From positions 188,171 through 252,170 of the forward strand of contig CAZHOI010000001.1 of NCBI GenBank assembly GCA_964534365.1: a DNA stretch of 64,000 nt, given 5' to 3'. Under the pieces are notes generated by a model. It saw only the letters and a program-made list of their open reading frames with translations. It ran no database searches and was not told the origin of the DNA. Below are positions 854 through 28,943 of this stretch, one piece after another (the first letter of the stretch is position 1; each line of letters opens with the position of its first letter). The DNA is from an uncultured Candidatus Saccharibacteria bacterium (GTDB lineage: Bacteria > Patescibacteriota > Minisyncoccia > Phycocordibacterales > SW-6-46-9). The position numbers and the translations under genes were made by a program.

Positions 854-891
854 GCTGCCTTAGCTCAGTTGGTAGAGCGCATCCATGGTAA
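854..891 (+). pseudogene. 5' half of a disrupted host tRNA-Thr(GGT) gene (acceptor 5' strand, D-arm, anticodon 5' stem, anticodon loop ATGGTAA)
   Basis: GCTGCCTTAGCTCAGTTGGTAGAGCGCATCCATGGTAA has a canonical tRNA 5' half; it pairs perfectly with the 3' half at 7178-7222. Confidence 0.7.
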
Positions 892-1003
892 TAAGTAGAT
901 AGTACTTAAAAACTAAGGATACGGCTTAAACCAAAGCTATTAGTAAGGTTGCAAGAGAGACATCGGCCTACTCTTGTGTAAAACAGGTCGGCGGATATCA
1001 TTC

Positions 1004-1076
1004 GCTGCTTTAGCTCAGTTGGTAGAGCGCGTCCATGGTAAGGACGAGGTCAACAGTTCAATTCTGTTAAGCAGCT
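1004..1076 (+). tRNA. tRNA-Thr (anticodon GGT), intact element-borne copy
   Basis: Cloverleaf: acceptor GCTGCTT/AAGCAGC, D-arm GCTC-AGTTGGTA-GAGC, anticodon stem CGTCC/GGACG, loop ATGGTAA, T-arm AACAG-TTCAATT-CTGTT; no CCA encoded. Confidence 0.85.
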
Positions 1077-1114
1077 CAACTAAAAATCACAGGCTTGTAG
1101 GTAAACAACAAGCA

Positions 1115-2005
1115 ATGACAAACATACAAACACTGGCACGCCAGTTCTACGATTACTCTACGTTTATACGTGGGTACTCACCAATAACAATAAAGCGTTA
1201 TCGGCAAGTGATTAACTTTTATTGCAAGCACTTTGACATTATAAATATCGAAGACGTAACAGAGAAAAACGTTAAGCAACTATTCGTGTTCGGTAGGTCT
1301 GAACGTAGTTGGTCAGCTAATAGCTACATTATCTATCAAAAGTCACTACTAGTGTTTTTTAGATGGTGTGTAACTAATGGTTACATGGCAACTAACTTTG
1401 CTGAACAAATCGAACTACCAAAATTAAGTAAACGGTTACCACCCAAGCTCACAAAACAGTCTGCTCAACAATTGCTACTTGTTATACAAAATTATCCTTA
1501 TGACTATCCATATCTGCGATATCGTAATCATGCAATCTTCGCTACCTTTCTATTTGCTGGGCTACGTAAGAGCGAGTTATTAAATCTTAAACTTAGTGAC
1601 GTAGACTTAGAAAATATGACGATTATGGTACGCCAAGGCAAGGGCTCTAAAGACCGTATCATTCCAATAAATTACACATTAATGCAGATACTTGAAGAAT
1701 ACTTGGTACATCGTAAGAGATTACGCAAAACATGTCCTGAATTCTTCACTTCGCTTAATAGAAATTTAGGTTTAACTGCTAGTGGACTTAAGTGGGTTGT
1801 TAAAACAGTTAGAAAGGCTACTAAAATACAGTTTACAATCCATAAGTTGCGACATACGTTTGCAACATTAATGTTAGAGGGCGGTTGCGACATCTACTCC
1901 TTGTCCAAAATGATGGGTCATAGCGACATAAAAACAACAACTATATATCTAGCGGCAAGTGCTGAGCACTTGAGGTCGCAGGTTACAAAGCACCCACTAT
2001 CATAA
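1115..2005 (+). CDS. Tyrosine recombinase/integrase (phage integrase family)
   Basis: C-terminal catalytic motifs GLRKSEL (Arg), HKLRHTFAT (H-x-x-R) and GHSDIKTTTIYL (His/Tyr); the ATG at 1115 is downstream of the tRNA, and the ORF-track start at 974 overlaps the tRNA. Confidence 0.85.
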   Translation: MTNIQTLARQFYDYSTFIRGYSPITIKRYRQVINFYCKHFDIINIEDVTEKNVKQLFVFGRSERSWSANSYIIYQKSLLVFFRWCVTNGYMATNFAEQIELPKLSKRLPPKLTKQSAQQLLLVIQNYPYDYPYLRYRNHAIFATFLFAGLRKSELLNLKLSDVDLENMTIMVRQGKGSKDRIIPINYTLMQILEEYLVHRKRLRKTCPEFFTSLNRNLGLTASGLKWVVKTVRKATKIQFTIHKLRHTFATLMLEGGCDIYSLSKMMGHSDIKTTTIYLAASAEHLRSQVTKHPLS

Positions 2006-2049
2006 AAAAGTCACTTATAATAAGATATAATTTCTTAAAGATACTTATT

Positions 2050-3153
2050 ATGAGTAAGATAACTCAGATAAATAAAGAAAACTTCAAGATAGCACGTAAA
2101 AATGCTGGTTTTTCTACTGTCGAAGCATCAAAAAAAGTTACGACATCAAAAAAAAATCTGGTTGAAGAATGGGAAAAAGGTGGCTCTACCCCAACTTGGA
2201 AGCAAGCCGAGACATTGTCGCGTATTTATAACGTTCCATTAGTATTAATGATGTCTAATAAAAGTTTATCTGTACAAAGAGAAATTCCAGACTTCAGAAG
2301 TAATATTAAAGAAATGAGTCTGCCTTTAAAGAGATATATCAACGATTTACTAAAGACTCAAAAGTGGTTAGAGAATAAAATCCAACAAGCAGACGGTTTA
2401 CAAAATTCAATTCAAGGTATTGCTTCAGCAACAGACTCTGTAGATGAATTAAGTAAAATTATTGCTGATAAACTGCAACTAGAGCTCGAATATTTTTACA
2501 GTATTGGCAGTGCGAAGAATAAATTACTTTATTTGATTGAGCGACTCGAAGATAAAGATGTATTTGTCGGCAAAACTTTTGCTCATTATGATATTCCTGT
2601 TAAAGAAATGAGAGGTATGTTTATTTCCAATAAGTATGCACCTATGATTATATTGAATAGAAAAGATGCATACACTGCGCAGTTGTTTACACTCGTCCAT
2701 GAAATCACGCATCTTTTCCGAAATACAGAAGGTGTTTCAAATATAGAACTTGCTAGGAAAGAAACTTTAAAAGAAGAGCGCTTATGTAACGAAGTTGCCG
2801 CCAAGATACTAATGCCAGAAAGTTTTTTGCCGAAAAGTAAGGTTGACTTAAATCAGTTAAAACAGTTAGCAAATAAATTGACCGTCAGTCCAATAGCAAT
2901 GTTTTATAGACTAAAAAACTCAAATAGAATTGCAGGTGAAGTAGATAAGGTGTTGGAAAAAGTAAAGCTTGAGACAAAGCAAAACCTAGAAGCAAAAGAA
3001 GCCAAGGGTTCTACAGGCGGTAACTACTATAACAATACTAAAGACTCTAATGGCACATTGCTAAACAGGTTCGTATCCTCGCTTTACTTTAATCAAGAGA
3101 TTAATTTCGTCGAAGCCTCGAATATTTTAAGACTAGCTGTAAATAAAGTATGA
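2050..3153 (+). CDS. Fusion protein: N-terminal XRE-type HTH DNA-binding domain plus C-terminal ImmA/IrrE (M78, COG2856) zinc metallopeptidase domain
   Basis: N-terminus KENFKIARKNAGFSTVEASKKV is HTH_XRE-like; HEXXH motif in FTLVHEITHLF; sits next to the integrase as ImmR/ImmA do in ICEBs1. Confidence 0.8.
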   Translation: MSKITQINKENFKIARKNAGFSTVEASKKVTTSKKNLVEEWEKGGSTPTWKQAETLSRIYNVPLVLMMSNKSLSVQREIPDFRSNIKEMSLPLKRYINDLLKTQKWLENKIQQADGLQNSIQGIASATDSVDELSKIIADKLQLELEYFYSIGSAKNKLLYLIERLEDKDVFVGKTFAHYDIPVKEMRGMFISNKYAPMIILNRKDAYTAQLFTLVHEITHLFRNTEGVSNIELARKETLKEERLCNEVAAKILMPESFLPKSKVDLNQLKQLANKLTVSPIAMFYRLKNSNRIAGEVDKVLEKVKLETKQNLEAKEAKGSTGGNYYNNTKDSNGTLLNRFVSSLYFNQEINFVEASNILRLAVNKV

Positions 3154-3647
3154 ATACCGAACAAAAAGGTTTTAAGTACGTCATAGACACTAATTACTTA
3201 ATAGGTTTTTCAATATGGCTACCAGTGACTTATAATGAAAATTTTTGGAATAATCTTGAAATTTTGGTAGAGAGTGGAAAAGTACTAATTTTAGACGTAG
3301 TAGCTAATGAGGTTACACGTAAAGGTGACCTAAAAACATGGTGCAAGAAGTTAAAACAAAAAAATCTTTTAACTTCAATTGAAAACACCGACAGAAATAG
3401 AGCTATTGAAATAAACAATCTTTACCCAATGATTGATGAAACCTCAGGAAATTCAGAGGTTGATACATACATAGTTGCTTTTTCTGAAAGGACTTCTCAC
3501 ACATTACTGAGTAGAGAGGCTCCAAGGAAATCAAGTAACGTTCCGTTCAAAATTCCAGATGTATGTAATAAATTAAATATCAACACAATACGGTGGCCTG
3601 AAGATTTTTATAGTATCTTCCCCGAGTTATTTAGTACGTGCAATTAG
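3150..3647 (+). CDS. DUF4411-family PIN-like predicted nuclease
   Basis: YVIDTNYLIGF...NFWNNLE...VLILDVVANEV...DLKTWCKK matches the DUF4411 pattern (IDTN...FW...V.eE...W); ATGA start/stop overlap with the upstream ImmA-fusion gene. Confidence 0.7.
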   Translation: MNTEQKGFKYVIDTNYLIGFSIWLPVTYNENFWNNLEILVESGKVLILDVVANEVTRKGDLKTWCKKLKQKNLLTSIENTDRNRAIEINNLYPMIDETSGNSEVDTYIVAFSERTSHTLLSREAPRKSSNVPFKIPDVCNKLNINTIRWPEDFYSIFPELFSTCN

Positions 3648-4150
3648 ATGCAAGCTTTAGCAATTTCACCATTTTGATAAACAAACAAATTTACTCGATT
3701 CCCACTTGGAATAGCTGACCTGGCACTATCTTTTAAAACTTGGCAATAACTATCAATGGCAACTTGGTTAGCTTGAGACATGACATAAGCTTCCACAATT
3801 ACACCATCATCGCCTTTCTTTACAATCACATTAGACCAACGACCTTCTGCCCAGCCGTCTAAATCTGCTTGTAGCTCATCGATATCAGCTTGAGTTATAG
3901 CAATAGTAGCAGGTGCAGTATTACTTACATTAGGCGGCAAATTAGTAGCTGATTGTGTGAGACTATCATCGCGAGAGTCGTTATTTGAAGCTAAGGTTAT
4001 TGATATAACAATCACTACAAAAATGAACCAAAGAATTGTTTTGATTGGATGTCTAGCAATATACGAGCGCTGACTTGAACCACAATTGGGACACTTAGTC
4101 GCTTTCTTGTTAATCTGCTCCTTACATTCTCTACATTCCTTAGTATCCAT
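3644..4150 (-). CDS. Zinc-ribbon membrane protein (N-terminal CxxC...CxxC, one TM helix, extracytoplasmic domain)
   Basis: MDTKECRECKEQINKKATKCPNCG followed by hydrophobic ILWFIFVVIVISITLA; convergent with the DUF4411 gene and sharing overlapping stop codons; the longer alternative start is at 4207. Confidence 0.5.
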   Translation of the reverse strand: MDTKECRECKEQINKKATKCPNCGSSQRSYIARHPIKTILWFIFVVIVISITLASNNDSRDDSLTQSATNLPPNVSNTAPATIAITQADIDELQADLDGWAEGRWSNVIVKKGDDGVIVEAYVMSQANQVAIDSYCQVLKDSARSAIPSGNRVNLFVYQNGEIAKACI

Positions 4151-4574
4151 AATTAAATTGTTAGTTAGTAACTGGTGTAAGGATTGTAGAAAGCACAAAA
4201 CCCGCAACCAGGTGAGCCGAAGCTCATACGACAGTTTCCCATCGCAACATTAGACACGCCCTGATTACGGGGTTTCTGTGTCTAATGATTTGCAACCATG
4301 CCGACTCTATCGAGGAGGGTTAGGTTGGTAGGTCTATTTTACACCAAAATTTGTCCACTATCCTTGGAACACACAAAAACTAGTTAGCAGGACATTAGCA
4401 GGATAAAGTCAATCTAGAGGACTATTTAAAAACACAAAACAGTAGAAGTAACAGAGAAAGTTTTTAATTTTATGTACCTATTCTTATATGGCAAAAATAA
4501 TAAATAATAGTAAAAAAACGGTAGGAAAACCATAAATACAGTTTTTAACTAAACTAACATGGTACATTTTACAT

Positions 4575-5240
4575 ATGAGTAAGAAACAGCCTTTGAGTAT
4601 TTACTTTGAGAAGCTAGTAGTGAAAAACCAATTTTTAGATGATTTGAAAGAGCTGAACAAATTTCATCAATCAAAACTCAGCCAATTTCAGTCAAATGAG
4701 TTACGGTCAATGTTTGCAGATATTGGTCGAGGTAGAGAATATTGGAGTAAAGTATTTATGATATGTTCTAAGTACGGATTAAATGTTAATCAATTCAAAA
4801 TCATAATATCTAAACTAGCCACTGAAAGTAATTATGATTACAAAGACGATTTAGCGCACATAAGCAACATTAAACTATTAGACTTACAATCTATAAAGAA
4901 AATAATAAAGAAAAAGTTCAATTACAGTAATGAAGCGACATATATTGAAAACGACTATCGGGCGTTTATCGGCCTAAGTAATAATACCACTAAAGCAGAG
5001 CTAATAGATTACATTGAAAAGAATTATCATTCTAAGATTAAACCTTTAATCAGTAATAAAAAAGTAAGCTTTAAAAATCTACAATTAGAAAGAAACAGTG
5101 AGTTAAAGAATTTTGTTTGGAAAAACCAAGATATGCCTCATAAGGAATTGGCTAAAAAAGTCAGTAAAAAGTTCAATAAGATTTGTACTCCTGGATATAT
5201 TTCAAAAATGCTTTCAAGATTAAGAAAACAACGTGATTGA
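4575..5240 (+). CDS. Hypothetical Lys-rich protein with C-terminal HTH-like segment
   Basis: 221-aa ORF; C-terminus HKELAKKVSKKFNKICTPGYISKMLSRLRK resembles an HTH; its stop overlaps the ATG of the downstream recombinase (ATGA). Confidence 0.55.
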   Translation: MSKKQPLSIYFEKLVVKNQFLDDLKELNKFHQSKLSQFQSNELRSMFADIGRGREYWSKVFMICSKYGLNVNQFKIIISKLATESNYDYKDDLAHISNIKLLDLQSIKKIIKKKFNYSNEATYIENDYRAFIGLSNNTTKAELIDYIEKNYHSKIKPLISNKKVSFKNLQLERNSELKNFVWKNQDMPHKELAKKVSKKFNKICTPGYISKMLSRLRKQRD

Positions 5241-6247
5241 AATATGACAAAATAAACTCCAAAAATTGTCAGTATTTCACACAATTTATTTCATATAGTT
5301 GTAGCTACCAACTTATGAAAGACAAAGACCTATATAAATTATTCGATGAATATATAAAAGAATGTACCTATGTAGCTCGCATGCGACCAGCTACCTTAAC
5401 AGGATATAAACAGGTGTTTGATACATTTATGAAGATTATGCCTGAGGTAAAAAAGGTAGATGATTTAATACCTGAGCTAATTACAGAATTCTTTACGCGC
5501 ATGCAGACAAGGACTAGACATTTAAACAACGGTCAAACCCGTTCTGGAATGAAACAATCCTCTGTTGTTACTTATAGAAGCAAGCTACATTCGTTTTTCA
5601 AATGGTTAAACACTAAAAATATCTTAGAAACCAATCCTTTTGACATGTTACCTAAGCCTGAATGGCCAGTGCATGAAGACCAAAGAGCCTTAGATACAAA
5701 AGAAGTTAATCAAATATTGGGTGCGATTTTAAATAATGACAACGACTTTATAATTTGTAGAGATACAGCACTTTTCTATACTTTACTTTACACAGGTATT
5801 AGAAAAAACGAACTAATAAACTTGAGTCTCTCTGATATTGATTTATTAAACCTGAGTTTAAGGGTTAAAGCTGAAACTTCTAAATCCAAAAGAGAACGCA
5901 TAATACCGATTAATAAGGTTTTAGCTCATAAATTAACTACGTATCTAGCAATGCGCAACAAGTTTAGTATTAAATCTGAGAAACTCTGGGTCTCTCATCA
6001 ATCAAAACAAAAACTAACTTCACATGGTCTAAAACATATAGTGGCAAAGTATGTTCATCTATCAGGCGTTAAGTTTCACCTACATCGTTTTCGACATACG
6101 TTTGCGTGTCAGCTGCATTTGGCAGGTGCATCAATTACTGAGATACAGCGTTTATTGGGCCATAAGAAAGTAACAATGACTATGTTGTATCTAAGGTCGA
6201 TAGATACAAAAGATGCTACTTGTCATATTAACAAGCTAACTTATTAG
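5237..6247 (+). CDS. Tyrosine recombinase/integrase, second copy within the element
   Basis: GIRKNEL (Arg), HRFRHTFAC (H-x-x-R), GHKKVTMTMLYL (His/Tyr); alternative start ATG at 5315. Confidence 0.8.
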   Translation: MKYDKINSKNCQYFTQFISYSCSYQLMKDKDLYKLFDEYIKECTYVARMRPATLTGYKQVFDTFMKIMPEVKKVDDLIPELITEFFTRMQTRTRHLNNGQTRSGMKQSSVVTYRSKLHSFFKWLNTKNILETNPFDMLPKPEWPVHEDQRALDTKEVNQILGAILNNDNDFIICRDTALFYTLLYTGIRKNELINLSLSDIDLLNLSLRVKAETSKSKRERIIPINKVLAHKLTTYLAMRNKFSIKSEKLWVSHQSKQKLTSHGLKHIVAKYVHLSGVKFHLHRFRHTFACQLHLAGASITEIQRLLGHKKVTMTMLYLRSIDTKDATCHINKLTY

Positions 6248-6307
6248 CAGTAAAAAGCGTGCTCGCGTTCACTTTTCTACATAAGTCAATTAGTATATAG
6301 CCATAAT

Positions 6308-6988
6308 ATGGTTATGAGTGATATTAAAAAATTACTAATTGAAACAGTTAAAGAGAATGGAATTGATATAGCATCTGATACATTAAAAGTTGTTAGTACT
6401 GTTGCTAACATTTATGGCAAAGTAAAGCGAACTCGAATTAAGATGTTCCTTAATTGCATTATAAGCTTTGTGAATGAGTTAACAGCCGAAGATAAAGAGC
6501 TTTTCATAGAATATGTAAACAGTGATGAAGGTCGGCAATTACTAACTGACTTTATAGATAGCGCATTACGCGTCTCAAATACAATACCGATGAGCGCTTT
6601 AGCATTACTTTTTGCTGACTATAACAGTATGGAATATGGCTTAAATGCCAAATACCATGGAATACGTGTACTTCCGAAGATGAATAATAAGGACGCTATT
6701 TTGTACTCTAAACTTATATCCGGAAGTTCAATATATGAAAATGCTCTAACAGAAATTGATAGTGATGAAACAGTCCCTTATGACACATATATCACATCTC
6801 TTCCCGTAAACGTACAAACTAAGAAATTGTTTATAGATATCAAAAAATTACAAAGCGAAGGCATTATATTAGATGACCCATTCAACGCTAGGATGGCAGG
6901 TGAAGAACTAACAATTGTTTACGGTCTTTCCGATAAAATGTATAGATTAGGGCGGGTGATAAGTATAGCAATTGAGATTAGTAATTAA
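6308..6988 (+). CDS. Hypothetical protein, element cargo
   Basis: 226-aa ORF with coding-like composition and no recognisable motifs. Confidence 0.5.
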   Translation: MVMSDIKKLLIETVKENGIDIASDTLKVVSTVANIYGKVKRTRIKMFLNCIISFVNELTAEDKELFIEYVNSDEGRQLLTDFIDSALRVSNTIPMSALALLFADYNSMEYGLNAKYHGIRVLPKMNNKDAILYSKLISGSSIYENALTEIDSDETVPYDTYITSLPVNVQTKKLFIDIKKLQSEGIILDDPFNARMAGEELTIVYGLSDKMYRLGRVISIAIEISN

Positions 6989-7177
6989 TTATTGATGGCA
7001 ACTTCTGTTATAATGATAGTACTGGGTTACAGCATTAATCAGTAAAAAACTAATAGCCTGTGATTGAGGACATTGGTTGTTAAATAGGTAGTTACATCTG
7101 CTTAGTTAAAACAGCTGATTTGCTCACAAAACCCTTATTTATAGCTCCCTTTTGTCGGAAAGGCCTATGTCCACTTA

Positions 7178-7222
7178 ATGGTAAGGATGAGGTCGACAGT
7201 TCAATTCTGTCAGGCAGCTCCA
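7178..7222 (+). pseudogene. 3' half of the disrupted host tRNA-Thr(GGT), from the anticodon loop through CCA
   Basis: ATGGTAA-GGATG-AGGTC-GACAG-TTCAATT-CTGTC-AGGCAGC-T-CCA; GGATG pairs CATCC and AGGCAGC pairs GCTGCCT of the 854-891 half; the ORF 7120-7317 over this region is spurious. Confidence 0.7.
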
Positions 7223-7276
7223 CTAAATTACACCACAAATATTTAAACCCGTTGGGTGACTGTCACCCTTGTCTCA

Positions 7277-9514: not shown

Positions 9515-9634
9515 AGACTTATTGTAACAGCTTTAAATTAACATCTATTAGAATGTCAACATTTTATTACCGTGTCCAAACTATGGATTTTAATTCAGAA
9601 CATTTTATAATCTGATTGGACCAACCACAGACTC

Positions 9635-9943
9635 ATGTACTACCAAGGATCAGTAGAAGCTGTAATTGCAGCGTATCAAAAAGCCTTTCCACATGTCGAG
9701 CCCAAATTTATTGATCTAGACGAAATTGACCTAACCAAACCAGTCGATCCATCATATGTGCTATGGATGTGTCAGAAAATTAAACATGAAAAGCCAAATT
9801 CTTATGAAAGTGCTGTCAAAATGGGACGTTGGATTGGTTGGATCTTTCGAGAAGTAGAACTTCGCGGCTTATGGCCAAACAGTTACAGCCGAGATCTCTC
9901 AAGAGCTGACAAACAAGCAGGTCGAGATCTACCTCATCAATAA
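9635..9943 (+). CDS. Hypothetical protein
   Basis: 102-aa ORF followed by a hairpin terminator. Confidence 0.45.
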   Translation: MYYQGSVEAVIAAYQKAFPHVEPKFIDLDEIDLTKPVDPSYVLWMCQKIKHEKPNSYESAVKMGRWIGWIFREVELRGLWPNSYSRDLSRADKQAGRDLPHQ

Positions 9944-14821: not shown

Positions 14822-16000
14822 TTAACCTTCCGCTCCTACTTCTGAACTTAGATCGCTAACTGCTGCGCCATTTAAAAACAATTGTACTCGATCAACCGCT
14901 TCAAACTGTAAAGCTGTTTCTTCGATCTGAATCTGCGCACGGGGCTCATCGCAAACTCCGGCAATCCCTGACAATTTACCCAGCAAATAAATTTGGGCTT
15001 CGCCATCAATTATAGTAGCTCGATCGAATGAAAGCGTGTCATTAGTATTGGGAATAAAGTGATTCAATTCACCAAGTTTATTATTATCAATTGCAAACAA
15101 CTGCCTTATCGATTCATTTAATGGCTGGGTGGTTGGTAAAATATTTCGCTCGATCAGCTCGACATTGTCACACCCTCGATCAGGTTCAGAATCAGCTGGT
15201 GATAGTAAGGCCAATTTAACCTGGGCCACGGGTTCAAGTTTAGTCACAGTTGGCAGTTCGCGATATGGCTCGATCGATTGGATCAAGTTGATGGCTCGTT
15301 CTTTGTCTGGGCTTGGCAACAAATTGTCATAGGTAATTTTCATGGCAGTACTGTCATCAAGGTTAATAACTGTTATTAACGTAGAATCAGTATTGGCTTT
15401 TAAATAGTTAAACCCATCTCTTCCCAATATGGAAATACTATCAACTTCGCCCTCTGCGTCAGGTGTCAGATTTTGGGCGGTTGCTGCCTCTTCCAATAAA
15501 TTGATTTCTATTCGTAATGATTTATTAGATGATTGATCAGTTATTGTAACTCCATTCTCTGATTGCGTTACGTTAGTTTTAGGAGGTTGAAGGAATGAAA
15601 AACCATATCCGACTAGAAAAACTTCAGAATAGAAACGTTCCCACGAGTCAATATTTAAATTATTTGAAAATTGATTTCTCTTAGCCAAACAGGATTTAGA
15701 AATAGTATCGCCGCCAGATTTAACCACCGCCTCGCCGTCAATTACCCAGAATAAATCTTGGCCGTTATCGGACTCAAATCGCAAGCTATTATTGGTTGAA
15801 ACTTGCTTGAGATCCATCACGACCCCTCCTGGTACAGTTACCGAGGCTTGATTACCTGTAACCACGACCTCCACCTCGACACCGTCACCGCAATCGTATT
15901 TAGCAACAACTGGATCAGGTTTTGGCAATAGCGCCAGAACCGCCATTATTACCACGACTAAAATGCCAATTCCAATTGCTAACAATTTGTAATTTTTCAT
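14822..16000 (-). CDS. Secreted/lipoprotein-like protein with MliC-like N-domain and GerMN-like C-domain (tentative)
   Basis: N-terminal TM/signal; YDCGDG...C pattern resembles MliC; the C-terminus resembles germination/sporulation GerMN domains. Confidence 0.5.
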   Translation of the reverse strand: MKNYKLLAIGIGILVVVIMAVLALLPKPDPVVAKYDCGDGVEVEVVVTGNQASVTVPGGVVMDLKQVSTNNSLRFESDNGQDLFWVIDGEAVVKSGGDTISKSCLAKRNQFSNNLNIDSWERFYSEVFLVGYGFSFLQPPKTNVTQSENGVTITDQSSNKSLRIEINLLEEAATAQNLTPDAEGEVDSISILGRDGFNYLKANTDSTLITVINLDDSTAMKITYDNLLPSPDKERAINLIQSIEPYRELPTVTKLEPVAQVKLALLSPADSEPDRGCDNVELIERNILPTTQPLNESIRQLFAIDNNKLGELNHFIPNTNDTLSFDRATIIDGEAQIYLLGKLSGIAGVCDEPRAQIQIEETALQFEAVDRVQLFLNGAAVSDLSSEVGAEG

Positions 16001-18614: not shown

Positions 18615-18814
18615 CGACCCTTCTTCGCCAAGGCTACGAACGGGCACAGCCGGAATCTCATATAAACATATTTTTTATCCCCAAACCCCTACTTTGAAAA
18701 CCCGAGGGGCAACGCTTTGCTGCTTTCCTACTTGGGGATAAAAAGTTCGAATCCAGTCTCTAATACAAATCAAACAAAAATACCGAGCGTAAAGCTCAGT
18801 ATTTTTATTCGAAG

Positions 18815-18889
18815 CGCGGTCGACCGGATTCGAACCGGCGATCTTCTGCGTGACAGGCAGACGTGTTAACCTAGCTACACCACGACCGC
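18815..18889 (-). tRNA. tRNA-Asp (anticodon GTC)
   Basis: Minus strand GCGGTCG-TG-GTAG...TCTGC-CTGTCAC-GCAGA...CGCCG-GTTCGAATCC-GGTCGACCGC-G; anticodon loop CTGTCAC. Confidence 0.9.
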
Positions 18890-21219: not shown

Positions 21220-21293
21220 CTCGAGGTAGCTCAGTTGGTTAGAGCGGGCGTCTCATACGCGCCAGGTCGTGAGTTCGAATCTCACCCTCGAGA
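21220..21293 (+). tRNA. tRNA-Met (anticodon CAT), elongator-type
   Basis: Acceptor CTCGAGG/CCTCGAG (1-72 paired), D-arm GCTC-AGTTGGTTA-GAGC, anticodon stem GGCGT/GCGCC, loop CTCATAC, T-arm GTGAG-TTCGAAT-CTCAC. Confidence 0.85.
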
Positions 21294-21330
21294 CTATTTA
21301 CGCTCAGAAATTTTTGAAAATTTATTCGCT

Positions 21331-28733: not shown

Positions 28734-28859
28734 TATCCTTTAGTATAGCCCCTAACCCCAACAACATAAACTACGATTTGTGGTTTATTGTATCTACTAG
28801 CCTTTTTTGTTACATTAATCCTACACTGCGGGCCGCTATAGCGAGCCTCGCGAAAATAT

Positions 28860-28930
28860 CGCGGGATGGAGAAGAGGTATCTCGGGAGGCTCATAACCTC
28901 CAGACGTAGGTTCGATTCCTGCTCCCGCAA
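28860..28930 (+). tRNA. Initiator tRNA-fMet (anticodon CAT)
   Basis: C1xA72 mismatch (CGCGGGA vs TCCCGCA), T8 G9, D-arm GAGA-AGAGGTA-TCTC, anticodon stem GGAGG/CCTCC, loop CTCATAA, T-arm GTAGG-TTCGATT-CCTGC; the overlapping ORF 28733-28930 is spurious. Confidence 0.8.
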
Positions 28931-28943
28931 TGCCGTAAAACAA

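Follow-up and report, generated by a model that had tools for sequence, protein, structure and literature searches.

In classical tRNA islands, as outlined in the Islander work (PMC4383910), a partial copy of the tRNA regenerates the interrupted gene at one junction, and one displaced fragment stays behind. A different arrangement, tRNA-dependent lysogeny, has been described for actinobacteriophages including Fionnbharth, LeBron, and Gaia: these phages share only 8–17 base pairs (bp) with the attachment site (attB) in the tRNA gene and do not rebuild the tRNA, and their cognate tRNA was shown experimentally to be required for viable lysogens; Lj965 of Lactobacillus was named as a possible further case (Guerrero-Bustamante and Hatfull, mBio 2024, PMC10865867). 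Here we describe an element in a 64,000-nucleotide (nt) stretch of contig CAZHOI010000001.1 of an uncultured Candidatus Saccharibacteria bacterium (hereafter the window; coordinates are given on its forward strand, features lie on the plus strand unless stated otherwise, and L-numbers designate contigs of relatives). Our analysis indicates, with high confidence, that the 6,286 bp at 892–7177 constitute a site-specific integrative island of a Patescibacteria-wide family, which splits the host tRNA-Thr(GGT) gene and supplies a complete replacement.

The host tRNA-Thr(GGT) gene is present in the window as two orphan halves, each of which carries a copy of the anticodon loop. In particular, the 5′ half (854–884) comprises the acceptor 5′ strand, the D arm, and the anticodon-stem 5′ strand and is followed by the left copy of the crossover core ATGGTAA, which is the anticodon loop (attL, 885–891), while the 3′ half (7185–7222) is preceded by the right copy of the core (attR, 7178–7184) and comprises the anticodon-stem 3′ strand, the variable loop, the T arm, the acceptor 3′ strand, and CCA; both core copies were recognized in the sequence and by repeat analysis. 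Specifically, 854–891 reads GCTGCCTTAGCTCAGTTGGTAGAGCGCATCC+ATGGTAA (by stems, GCTGCCT-TA-GCTC-AGTTGGTA-GAGC-G-CATCC-ATGGTAA), and 7178–7222 reads ATGGTAA+GGATGAGGTCGACAGTTCAATTCTGTCAGGCAGCTCCA (by stems, ATGGTAA-GGATG-AGGTC-GACAG-TTCAATT-CTGTC-AGGCAGC-T-CCA). Neither junction region by itself yields a tRNA in ARAGORN; 854–891 joined to 7185–7222 gives a canonical 76-nt tRNA-Thr(GGT) with all four stems perfectly paired and a minimum free energy of −28.9 kcal/mol. An earlier sequence-only reading of this locus had proposed that the two fragments are the halves of one tRNA-Thr, that both keep the 7-nt loop as a direct repeat, and that their acceptor and anticodon stems pair perfectly only with each other. 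The ARAGORN call of the joined sequence, the sequences themselves, which are exactly as that reading gave them, and a comparison of the stems agree with it on all these points.

The uninterrupted target is found in two relatives. A protein search with Ndh, the type-II NADH dehydrogenase whose gene flanks the window's left end, led through its closest homologue (62% identical) to L044 (NCBI GCA_964614195.1, 19.9 kb), which contains an intact tRNA-Thr identical to the window join at 73/73 positions. The gene order in L044 (ferritin, BacA, DsbB, peptide deformylase, a 682-aa homologue of the window's 745-aa protein, tRNA-Thr(GGT), Ndh, and BrxC) is that of the window, with nothing between the tRNA halves and with both flanking genes syntenic. 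When metagenome contigs were scanned for an exact copy of the 73-nt join (854–891 plus 7185–7219), one contig was returned, L006, in which an intact, 73/73-identical tRNA-Thr lies divergently beside an Ndh homologue, the contig ending 5 nt past the tRNA. Both halves in the window, 854–884 and 7185–7219, are thus intact and identical to the corresponding parts of the tRNAs of L044 and L006, and, as two other contigs contain the 73-nt join without interruption or mismatch, the match between the fragments is not due to chance. The search for an uninterrupted tRNA in related genomes, which the sequence-only reading had proposed as a check, accordingly yielded an intact copy at the syntenic L044 site and another beside Ndh in L006. 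Its central claim, an integrative insertion into the tRNA-Thr anticodon loop, is upheld by this empty site together with the low G+C content of the insert (~0.30–0.34, about 33%, against ~0.40–0.44, about 42%, in the flanks), the intact recombinases, the inverted repeats around the 7-nt overlap of the predicted circular attachment site, and the recurrence in other hosts described below.

Two further tRNA-Thr sequences were encountered in these searches. An exact 48-nt pattern spanning the junction had a single match in the genome collection, L005, an unrelated metagenome-assembled genome (MAG) whose tRNA-Thr is intact but differs in its acceptor stem; we read this match as indicating that the join is tRNA-like and do not count it as an empty site. 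Just downstream of the intact tRNA-Thr of L044, at ~9620–9675 on the minus strand, lies a degenerate second copy of the last 35 nt of the tRNA, in which two nucleotides are substituted and the T loop is enlarged by a 20-nt insert; it resembles a scar that another integration event, of the classical kind, might have left at this tRNA.

Foreign DNA could in principle have been placed in a tRNA gene by an assembly chimera or mis-join, the data being metagenomic and tRNA genes being repeats at which assemblers mis-join. We rejected this explanation, to which we give next to no probability: the junctions are identical in at least six independent assemblies, including four from the Joint Genome Institute (JGI; 3300040787, 3300040788, 3300040789, and 3300040798) and two Logan assemblies, and are therefore not an assembly artefact, and analogous junctions are present in unrelated genomes.

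The replacement is a complete tRNA-Thr(GGT) at 1004–1076, 112 bp inside the left end of the island (ARAGORN, 1004–1077; Rfam tRNA, 67.1 bits). Its 3′ end reads ...GCAGCT-CAA, so that it has no encoded CCA, and it is the only tRNA that ARAGORN calls in the 854–7222 region. Between the host tRNA and the element tRNA there are six differences, which together make up three compensated base pairs: acceptor pair 6:67 (C-G in the host, T-A in the element), anticodon-stem pair 28:42 (A-T in the host, G-C in the element), and T-stem pair 49:65 (G-C in the host, A-T in the element). Each gene is therefore internally co-adapted, and the intact gene at 1004–1076 is not a hybrid formed at a host/element junction. 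The sequence-only reading had described this gene as an intact, divergent tRNA-Thr(GGT) with compensatory stem changes and without an encoded CCA, and had suggested a tRNA scan of the window; the scan, which leaves the split halves uncalled, and the pairs listed above concur with that description.

The same observations bear on classical restoring integration, in which 1004–1076 would be the attL hybrid and 854–891 the leftover of an older event. Restoring islands are usually recognized by a tRNA gene with an integrase directly after it, and 1035–1084 and 7178–7227 form a direct repeat of 90% identity (D2). Against this, each of the three differences on the 5′ side of 1004–1076 is compensated on its own 3′ side, 854–884 pairs perfectly only with 7185–7222, the empty site has exactly the join of 854–891 and 7185–7219 as its intact gene, and conserved sequence belonging to the element fills the 112 bp that separate the fragment from the tRNA. 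Contradicted by the co-adapted tRNA pairs and by the sequence of the empty site, restoring integration was rejected as very improbable. The likeness between the host and element tRNAs reaches ~10 nt upstream and ~8 nt downstream of the gene (repeats D2 and D3), and, because it extends past the gene ends, it suggests that the replacement gene was once captured, flanks included, from a related chromosomal tRNA-Thr locus. The upstream flanks, 844–853 and 994–1003, match at ~7/10 nt, and the downstream flanks, 1077–1084 and 7220–7227, read CAACTAAA and CCACTAAA, respectively.

The island encodes two Xer-like tyrosine recombinases, one near each end. Int1 (1115–2005, 296 aa; Pfam PF00589, 2.7e-31) lies directly downstream of the element tRNA, and Int2 (5237–6247, 336 aa from a TTG start; PF00589, 5.7e-31) lies towards the right end; an alternative ATG start of Int2 at 5315, as called by JGI, gives 310 aa. 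The two proteins share 28% identity. Among solved proteins, XerA and XerD are the nearest to them, and the catalytic residues of Int1 were aligned to XerA and those of Int2 to XerD. Each has a complete R-K-HxxR-H-Y catalytic set, and both look functional. Int1 scores 185.5 bits with the NCBIfam XerA model (cut-off 220), 173 with XerC (335), and 168 with XerD (330), and the scores of Int2 are lower, so that both fall below the XerC, XerD, and XerA cut-offs. Scoring below these equivalog cut-offs, and located inside an insertion that L044 does not have, Int1 and Int2 are not the dimer-resolution recombinases of the core genome. The sequence-only reading was right that the element carries a tyrosine recombinase and fell short in counting a single integrase.

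Joining the right end of the island to its left end gives the inferred core of the attachment site of a circular form (attP), GTCCACTTA-ATGGTAA-TAAGTAGAT, and, over a wider span, the predicted circle junction ...GGCCTATGTCCACTTA-ATGGTAA-TAAGTAGATAGTAC.... Only the 7 bp ATGGTAA are common to attP and the host tRNA, and hence no functional tRNA is rebuilt at either junction. In attP, the sequences on the two sides of the 7-nt core are inverted repeats at 7/9 positions in the window, at 8/9 in L009/L037 (two parts of one NCBI contig), and at 5/9 in L016. The target tRNA reads GAGCGCATCC-ATGGTAA-GGATGAGGTC, a 10-7-10 imperfect palindrome. Its 10-nt arms are inverted repeats at 8/10 positions, which makes the anticodon stem-loop, together with its neighbouring nucleotides, a natural core site for a tyrosine recombinase.

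The regions beside the core align between elements in different hosts (seven elements for the right, or Y, arm and five for the left, or X, arm). In the window, the Y arm is the 112 bp at 892–1003, with the half-site TAAGTAGAT (892–900) adjoining the core and a box, AAACAGGTC, at 981–989 (+96), while the X arm is the 189 bp at 6989–7177, with a box, AAATAGGTA, at 7082–7090 (−96) and the half-site GTCCACTTA (7169–7177) adjoining the core. The arms share a 9-nt box, AAAYAGGYM, in direct orientation at fixed offsets from the first core base, with a background frequency of 0.1 per kb per strand. Specifically, the box occurs at −96 and +96 in the window, where the core-adjacent copy is degenerate; at −96, +8, and +96 in L016 (9859, 9947, and 18066); and at −96, +8, and +95 in L009/L037 (9568 and 9655 in L009 and 11042 in L037). 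The extended consensus differs among the positions −96, +8, and +95/96. At +8, the box coincides with the right half-site of the core; in the tRNA target this place reads GATGAGGTC, a match to the box at 6/9 positions. With their spacing fixed in this way, the X and Y arms evidently belong to a single attachment site, and the boxes are good candidates for binding by the recombinases or by accessory proteins. One hypothesis in keeping with the levels of conservation would have the box recognized by the highly conserved Int1 and the left half-site, which is variable, by the more variable Int2.

The arrangement recurs in other hosts. Int1 has thousands of homologues, the best 120 of which are all 64–71% identical to it, and the named ones among these are mainly from Patescibacteria, Parcubacteria, and Magasanikbacteria; our placement of the host in the Patescibacteria is based on the named homologues of Int1, Int2, and Ndh. 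Genomic contexts were fetched for six Int1 homologues. A common left end, consisting of an orphan 5′ half with its loop, an arm of ~110–140 nt, a complete tRNA-Thr(GGT), and Int1, is present in L009, L012/13, L016, L022, and the window, and the layout of the family as a whole is orphan 5′ half, arm, complete tRNA-Thr, Int1, variable defence-type cargo, Int2, and orphan 3′ half. Two elements, of 8,303 bp in L016 and of 17,137 bp in L009/L037, are resolved at both ends, and each has an Int2 orthologue just inside its right end. The host halves of L016 (GCCAACA...CATCC and GGATG...TGTTGGC) pair perfectly together and differ from the element tRNA at 15 positions; those of L009/L037 likewise pair together, the 3′ half differing from its element tRNA by two compensated T-stem pairs; and the joined halves of both are called as tRNA-Thr(GGT) by ARAGORN. 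The Int2 orthologues occupy the same position across related elements and are 41–49% identical to each other and 25–33% identical to Int1. A trace of the same left end is seen in over-long open reading frame (ORF) calls for Int1, 11/16 of which open with a read-through translation of tRNA-Thr(GGT) (for example, HGK from CAT GGT AAG). Comparison of these sequences establishes an insertion at the anticodon loop with a duplicated 7-bp core, no regeneration of the tRNA at the junctions, a complete and co-adapted element tRNA with the same anticodon, and recurrence in independent elements. The cargo differs among members: a restriction-modification system of type I in L022; a methyltransferase and a 762-aa protein in L016; Fic, a proteasome-like protein, and a giant RHS toxin in L009/L037; and a diversity-generating retroelement in L012.

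In L009 and L012, the replacement tRNA-Thr(GGT) is itself interrupted: in both, a homologous sequence of ~190 nt separates positions 36 and 37 of the anticodon loop (9726–9917, 192 nt, in L009; ~9734–9916 in L012). The 5′ exon ends in U, the insert ends in G, and removal of the insert gives a canonical tRNA. Rfam does not call either sequence at its gathering thresholds (a sub-threshold score of 26.4 bits for L012, none for L009), and the assignment as a group I intron therefore relies on splice-site logic and on the homology of the two sequences. Lying within the 7-bp crossover site of the element tRNA, such an intron divides that site and could shield the tRNA from the integrase.

Another conceivable explanation is that the host gene in the window is itself a split gene or holds a very large intervening sequence, with its halves joined as RNA, as in the split tRNAs of Nanoarchaeum or in tRNAs with group I introns. 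The break falls within the anticodon loop, as is usual for tRNA introns and split genes, and relatives of the element carry a group-I-like intron in tRNA-Thr. The whole 7-nt loop is nevertheless present on both halves, which is the signature of recombination and not of a splice junction; the 6.3 kb between them contain two recombinase genes and cargo genes, with no intron RNA detected by Rfam; the complementarity beside the halves amounts to only 7/9 nt; and an intact tRNA with the same anticodon is supplied. On the strength of the duplicated loop, the recombinase-bearing insert, and the intact tRNA, we rejected a split or trans-spliced tRNA, which we regard as exceedingly improbable.

An integrative island, our preferred reading, could operate as follows. 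The island would form a circle with an attP composed of the X arm, GTCCACTTA, ATGGTAA, TAAGTAGAT, and the Y arm; Int1, Int2, or both would pair attP with the anticodon stem-loop of the chromosomal tRNA-Thr(GGT); and strand exchange would take place across the 7-bp anticodon loop. The host gene would be left as two orphan halves with a copy of the loop on each, and the element tRNA-Thr(GGT), directly upstream of Int1, would assume the task of reading ACC and ACU codons. If excised precisely, the island would leave the host gene whole again. We infer that the island is mobile and that its tRNA is expressed and essential to the cell.

Several observations weigh against this reading. Neither an excised circle nor a same-species empty site was found, and every contig of the organism carries the island. 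The half-site TAAGTAGAT and the X-arm box AAATAGGTA of the window are degenerate relative to the family consensus. The inventory of tRNA-Thr(GGT) genes covers 64 kb of the genome, within which ARAGORN finds no second tRNA-Thr. The element tRNA has an intact ATGGTAA loop of its own 150 bp from attL, two sites between which the recombinase would have to avoid a deletion. Finally, modules in L011 (7935–10906) and L019 (8623–10894) do not fit a simple replacement scheme. In these modules, which come from two large contigs, Int2, an X arm, a core, a Y arm, and Int1 are contiguous, like an unrecombined attP or a tandem junction, and the regions around them contain TrwB/TraG-like and ArdC genes. The X arm of L019 incorporates a tRNA-Lys(CTT) 5′ half, and an element tRNA is absent there; L011 carries a tRNA-Thr(CGT), with a core, TTACGAA, that is the reverse complement of the loop of that tRNA.

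Some of these points would be expected if the island had entered as described and were now fixed and immobile, its replacement being the cell's only tRNA-Thr(GGT) and its recombinases being kept for another role, for instance cargo exchange or dimer resolution. All assemblies of the organism carry the island and none has an empty site, Int1 is unusually conserved (65–71% across divergent Patescibacteria), and the core-adjacent sites of the window are degenerate. We nevertheless consider a fixed resident unlikely. The orphan halves show no decay, being identical at 73/73 positions to intact orthologues; both recombinase ORFs are intact with their catalytic residues; and the same locus in related hosts has other cargo (L009 compared with L016) or no element (L044), which indicates turnover.

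A more far-reaching interpretation, which we put forward tentatively and hold to be possible rather than probable, is that the island in the window, as an integrative element, belongs to a family of defence islands with two recombinases each, a family that would be very large, span the Patescibacteria, and be as yet undescribed. Members would obligately destroy the host tRNA-Thr(GGT) gene and bring their own substitute, making them agents of tRNA-gene turnover; Int1 would read the box at −96/+8/+96 and Int2 the variable half-site; and some members would protect their own tRNA by means of a group I intron placed exactly inside the 7-bp crossover site.

The remaining contents of the island are cargo and genes without family assignment. 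A gene for a helix-turn-helix and ImmA/IrrE (M78) metallopeptidase regulator (2050–3153; Pfam PF06114; PHROG transcriptional regulator), which matches the RmrA and capP models of PADLOC and is RmrA-like, overlaps by 4 nt a gene for a DUF4411 protein (3150–3647; PF14367, 3.2e-18). The DUF4411 protein is probably the partner of the M78 protein, and the pair (2050–3647) is likely, judging from these families, to be a toxin-antitoxin or defence module. On the minus strand, a zinc-ribbon protein gene (3644–4207; weak Pfam zinc-ribbon matches and PHROG families of unknown function) has directly 5′ of it, on the same strand, a LOOT RNA (4213–4326; Rfam RF03000, 64.6 bits against a gathering score of 46.4), which could act in cis as a leader or be a small RNA associated with the island. 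A second LOOT RNA (89.8 bits) lies in the related L012 element at 15030–15153 on the plus strand, 5′ of a PG_binding_1 gene. The paper introducing LOOT RNA does not discuss it in its main text. Two ORFs, of 221 aa (4575–5240, overlapping the start of Int2) and 226 aa (6308–6988), are known from the ORF list and have no family matches in Pfam, PHROGs, PADLOC, or NCBIfam.

Upstream of the island, directly before the orphan 5′ half, lies a weak sigma-70-like promoter match, TTGAAT-16-TATGAT (816–843; two matches against 0.7 expected), with no consistent counterpart at the L016, L009, and L022 loci. It is a matter of speculation that the host tRNA promoter reads into the island and drives the element tRNA and Int1 (promoter capture). 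A tRNA-Asp and two tRNA-Met genes are found near the tRNA-Thr locus, at 18814–18889, 21220–21294, and 28859–28931 in the window and at 5316–6024 in L009 and 7014–9009 in L016, which belong to distantly related hosts; the tRNA-Thr neighbourhood appears to be a conserved tRNA-rich region.

By its gene content, the element is not a phage: no capsid, tail, terminase, or lysis genes are present in its 6.3 kb, for which PHROGs gives an integrase, a regulator/metalloprotease, and families of unknown function only. Nor did Pfam, PHROGs, and NCBIfam reveal a relaxase, a coupling protein, or type IV secretion system genes. An IMG/VR search with Int1 returned only distant recombinases of 25–45% identity, and a search of the same collection with the junction motif CATGGTAANNAACAGGTY returned only chance matches and phage tRNA-Thr genes; judging from these searches, islands of the Int1/tRNA-Thr family are not in the IMG/VR viral collection. 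A tblastn search with Int1 against phage and plasmid collections gave nothing above 34% identity. Full-text literature searches found no description of a two-recombinase Patescibacteria family, of its structured attachment site, or of intron-bearing replacement tRNAs, and a 2025 survey of Patescibacteria genomic islands makes no mention of tRNA or integrases. The sequence-only reading had called the arrangement an uncommon solution; it was correct that the insertion is non-restoring and that a replacement is supplied, and the principle had already been described as tRNA-dependent lysogeny (PMC10865867). What is already known is thus the non-restoring principle, from phages; the non-phage two-recombinase Patescibacteria family is what the searched literature does not contain.

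The island and its relatives extend a strategy of breaking the target tRNA and bringing one's own, experimentally demonstrated only in actinobacteriophages, to non-viral islands of the ultra-small, largely uncultured Patescibacteria. The points of interest are the size and regularity of the family and its cleanly patterned attachment site. Patescibacteria genomes are small, and most of their tRNA genes are assumed to be single-copy; if so, the cell would rely on mobile DNA to decode ACC and ACU. The signature of Int1, tRNA-Thr, and an orphan half could serve as a marker to delimit genomic islands in Patescibacteria MAGs, and the cargo seen here comprises restriction-modification systems, toxins, and a diversity-generating retroelement. 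The attachment site, compact and strongly patterned (a 7-bp overlap and boxes at ±96 bp) and served by simple Xer-like enzymes, would make a tractable recombination system in vitro.

Paired tyrosine recombinases are familiar from XerC/XerD, which act at dif, and from TnpA/TnpB of Tn554. Like these pairs, the island encodes two distinct Xer-like recombinases together and has an asymmetric core site with one conserved and one variable half-site. Unlike XerC/XerD, both proteins score below the NCBIfam cut-offs, and their genes lie at opposite ends of a mobile island and not in the core genome.

With classical tRNA and tmRNA islands, the element shares a tyrosine recombinase, a tRNA target, an integrase gene beside the attachment site, and accessory or defence cargo; with anticodon-loop islands, a crossover in the 7-nt loop flanked by the symmetric anticodon stem; and with Islander-type islands, site-specific insertion by a tyrosine recombinase, for which L044 and L006 provide the uninterrupted target. 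Unlike classical restoring islands, it leaves both halves of the host gene orphaned and has a separate complete gene 112 bp inside.

The closest match is to tRNA-dependent lysogeny, three sequence-level features of which are found in the window: tyrosine recombinases with an attB inside a host tRNA gene; a common core too short to rebuild the tRNA (7 bp here, 8–17 bp in the phages); and an element-borne tRNA, tRNA-Thr(GGT), with the same anticodon as the split gene. The need for the phage tRNA was shown by experiment; in the window, a need for the element tRNA is a prediction from sequence. The element differs from the phages in having no structural, lysis, or replication genes and in its host, a Patescibacteria bacterium. 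In place of the single lambda-like Int of the phages, it has two Xer-like recombinases, apparently without a lambda-type arm-binding domain to judge from their length and Pfam matches, and it carries its replacement tRNA within the attachment region itself, next to Int1.

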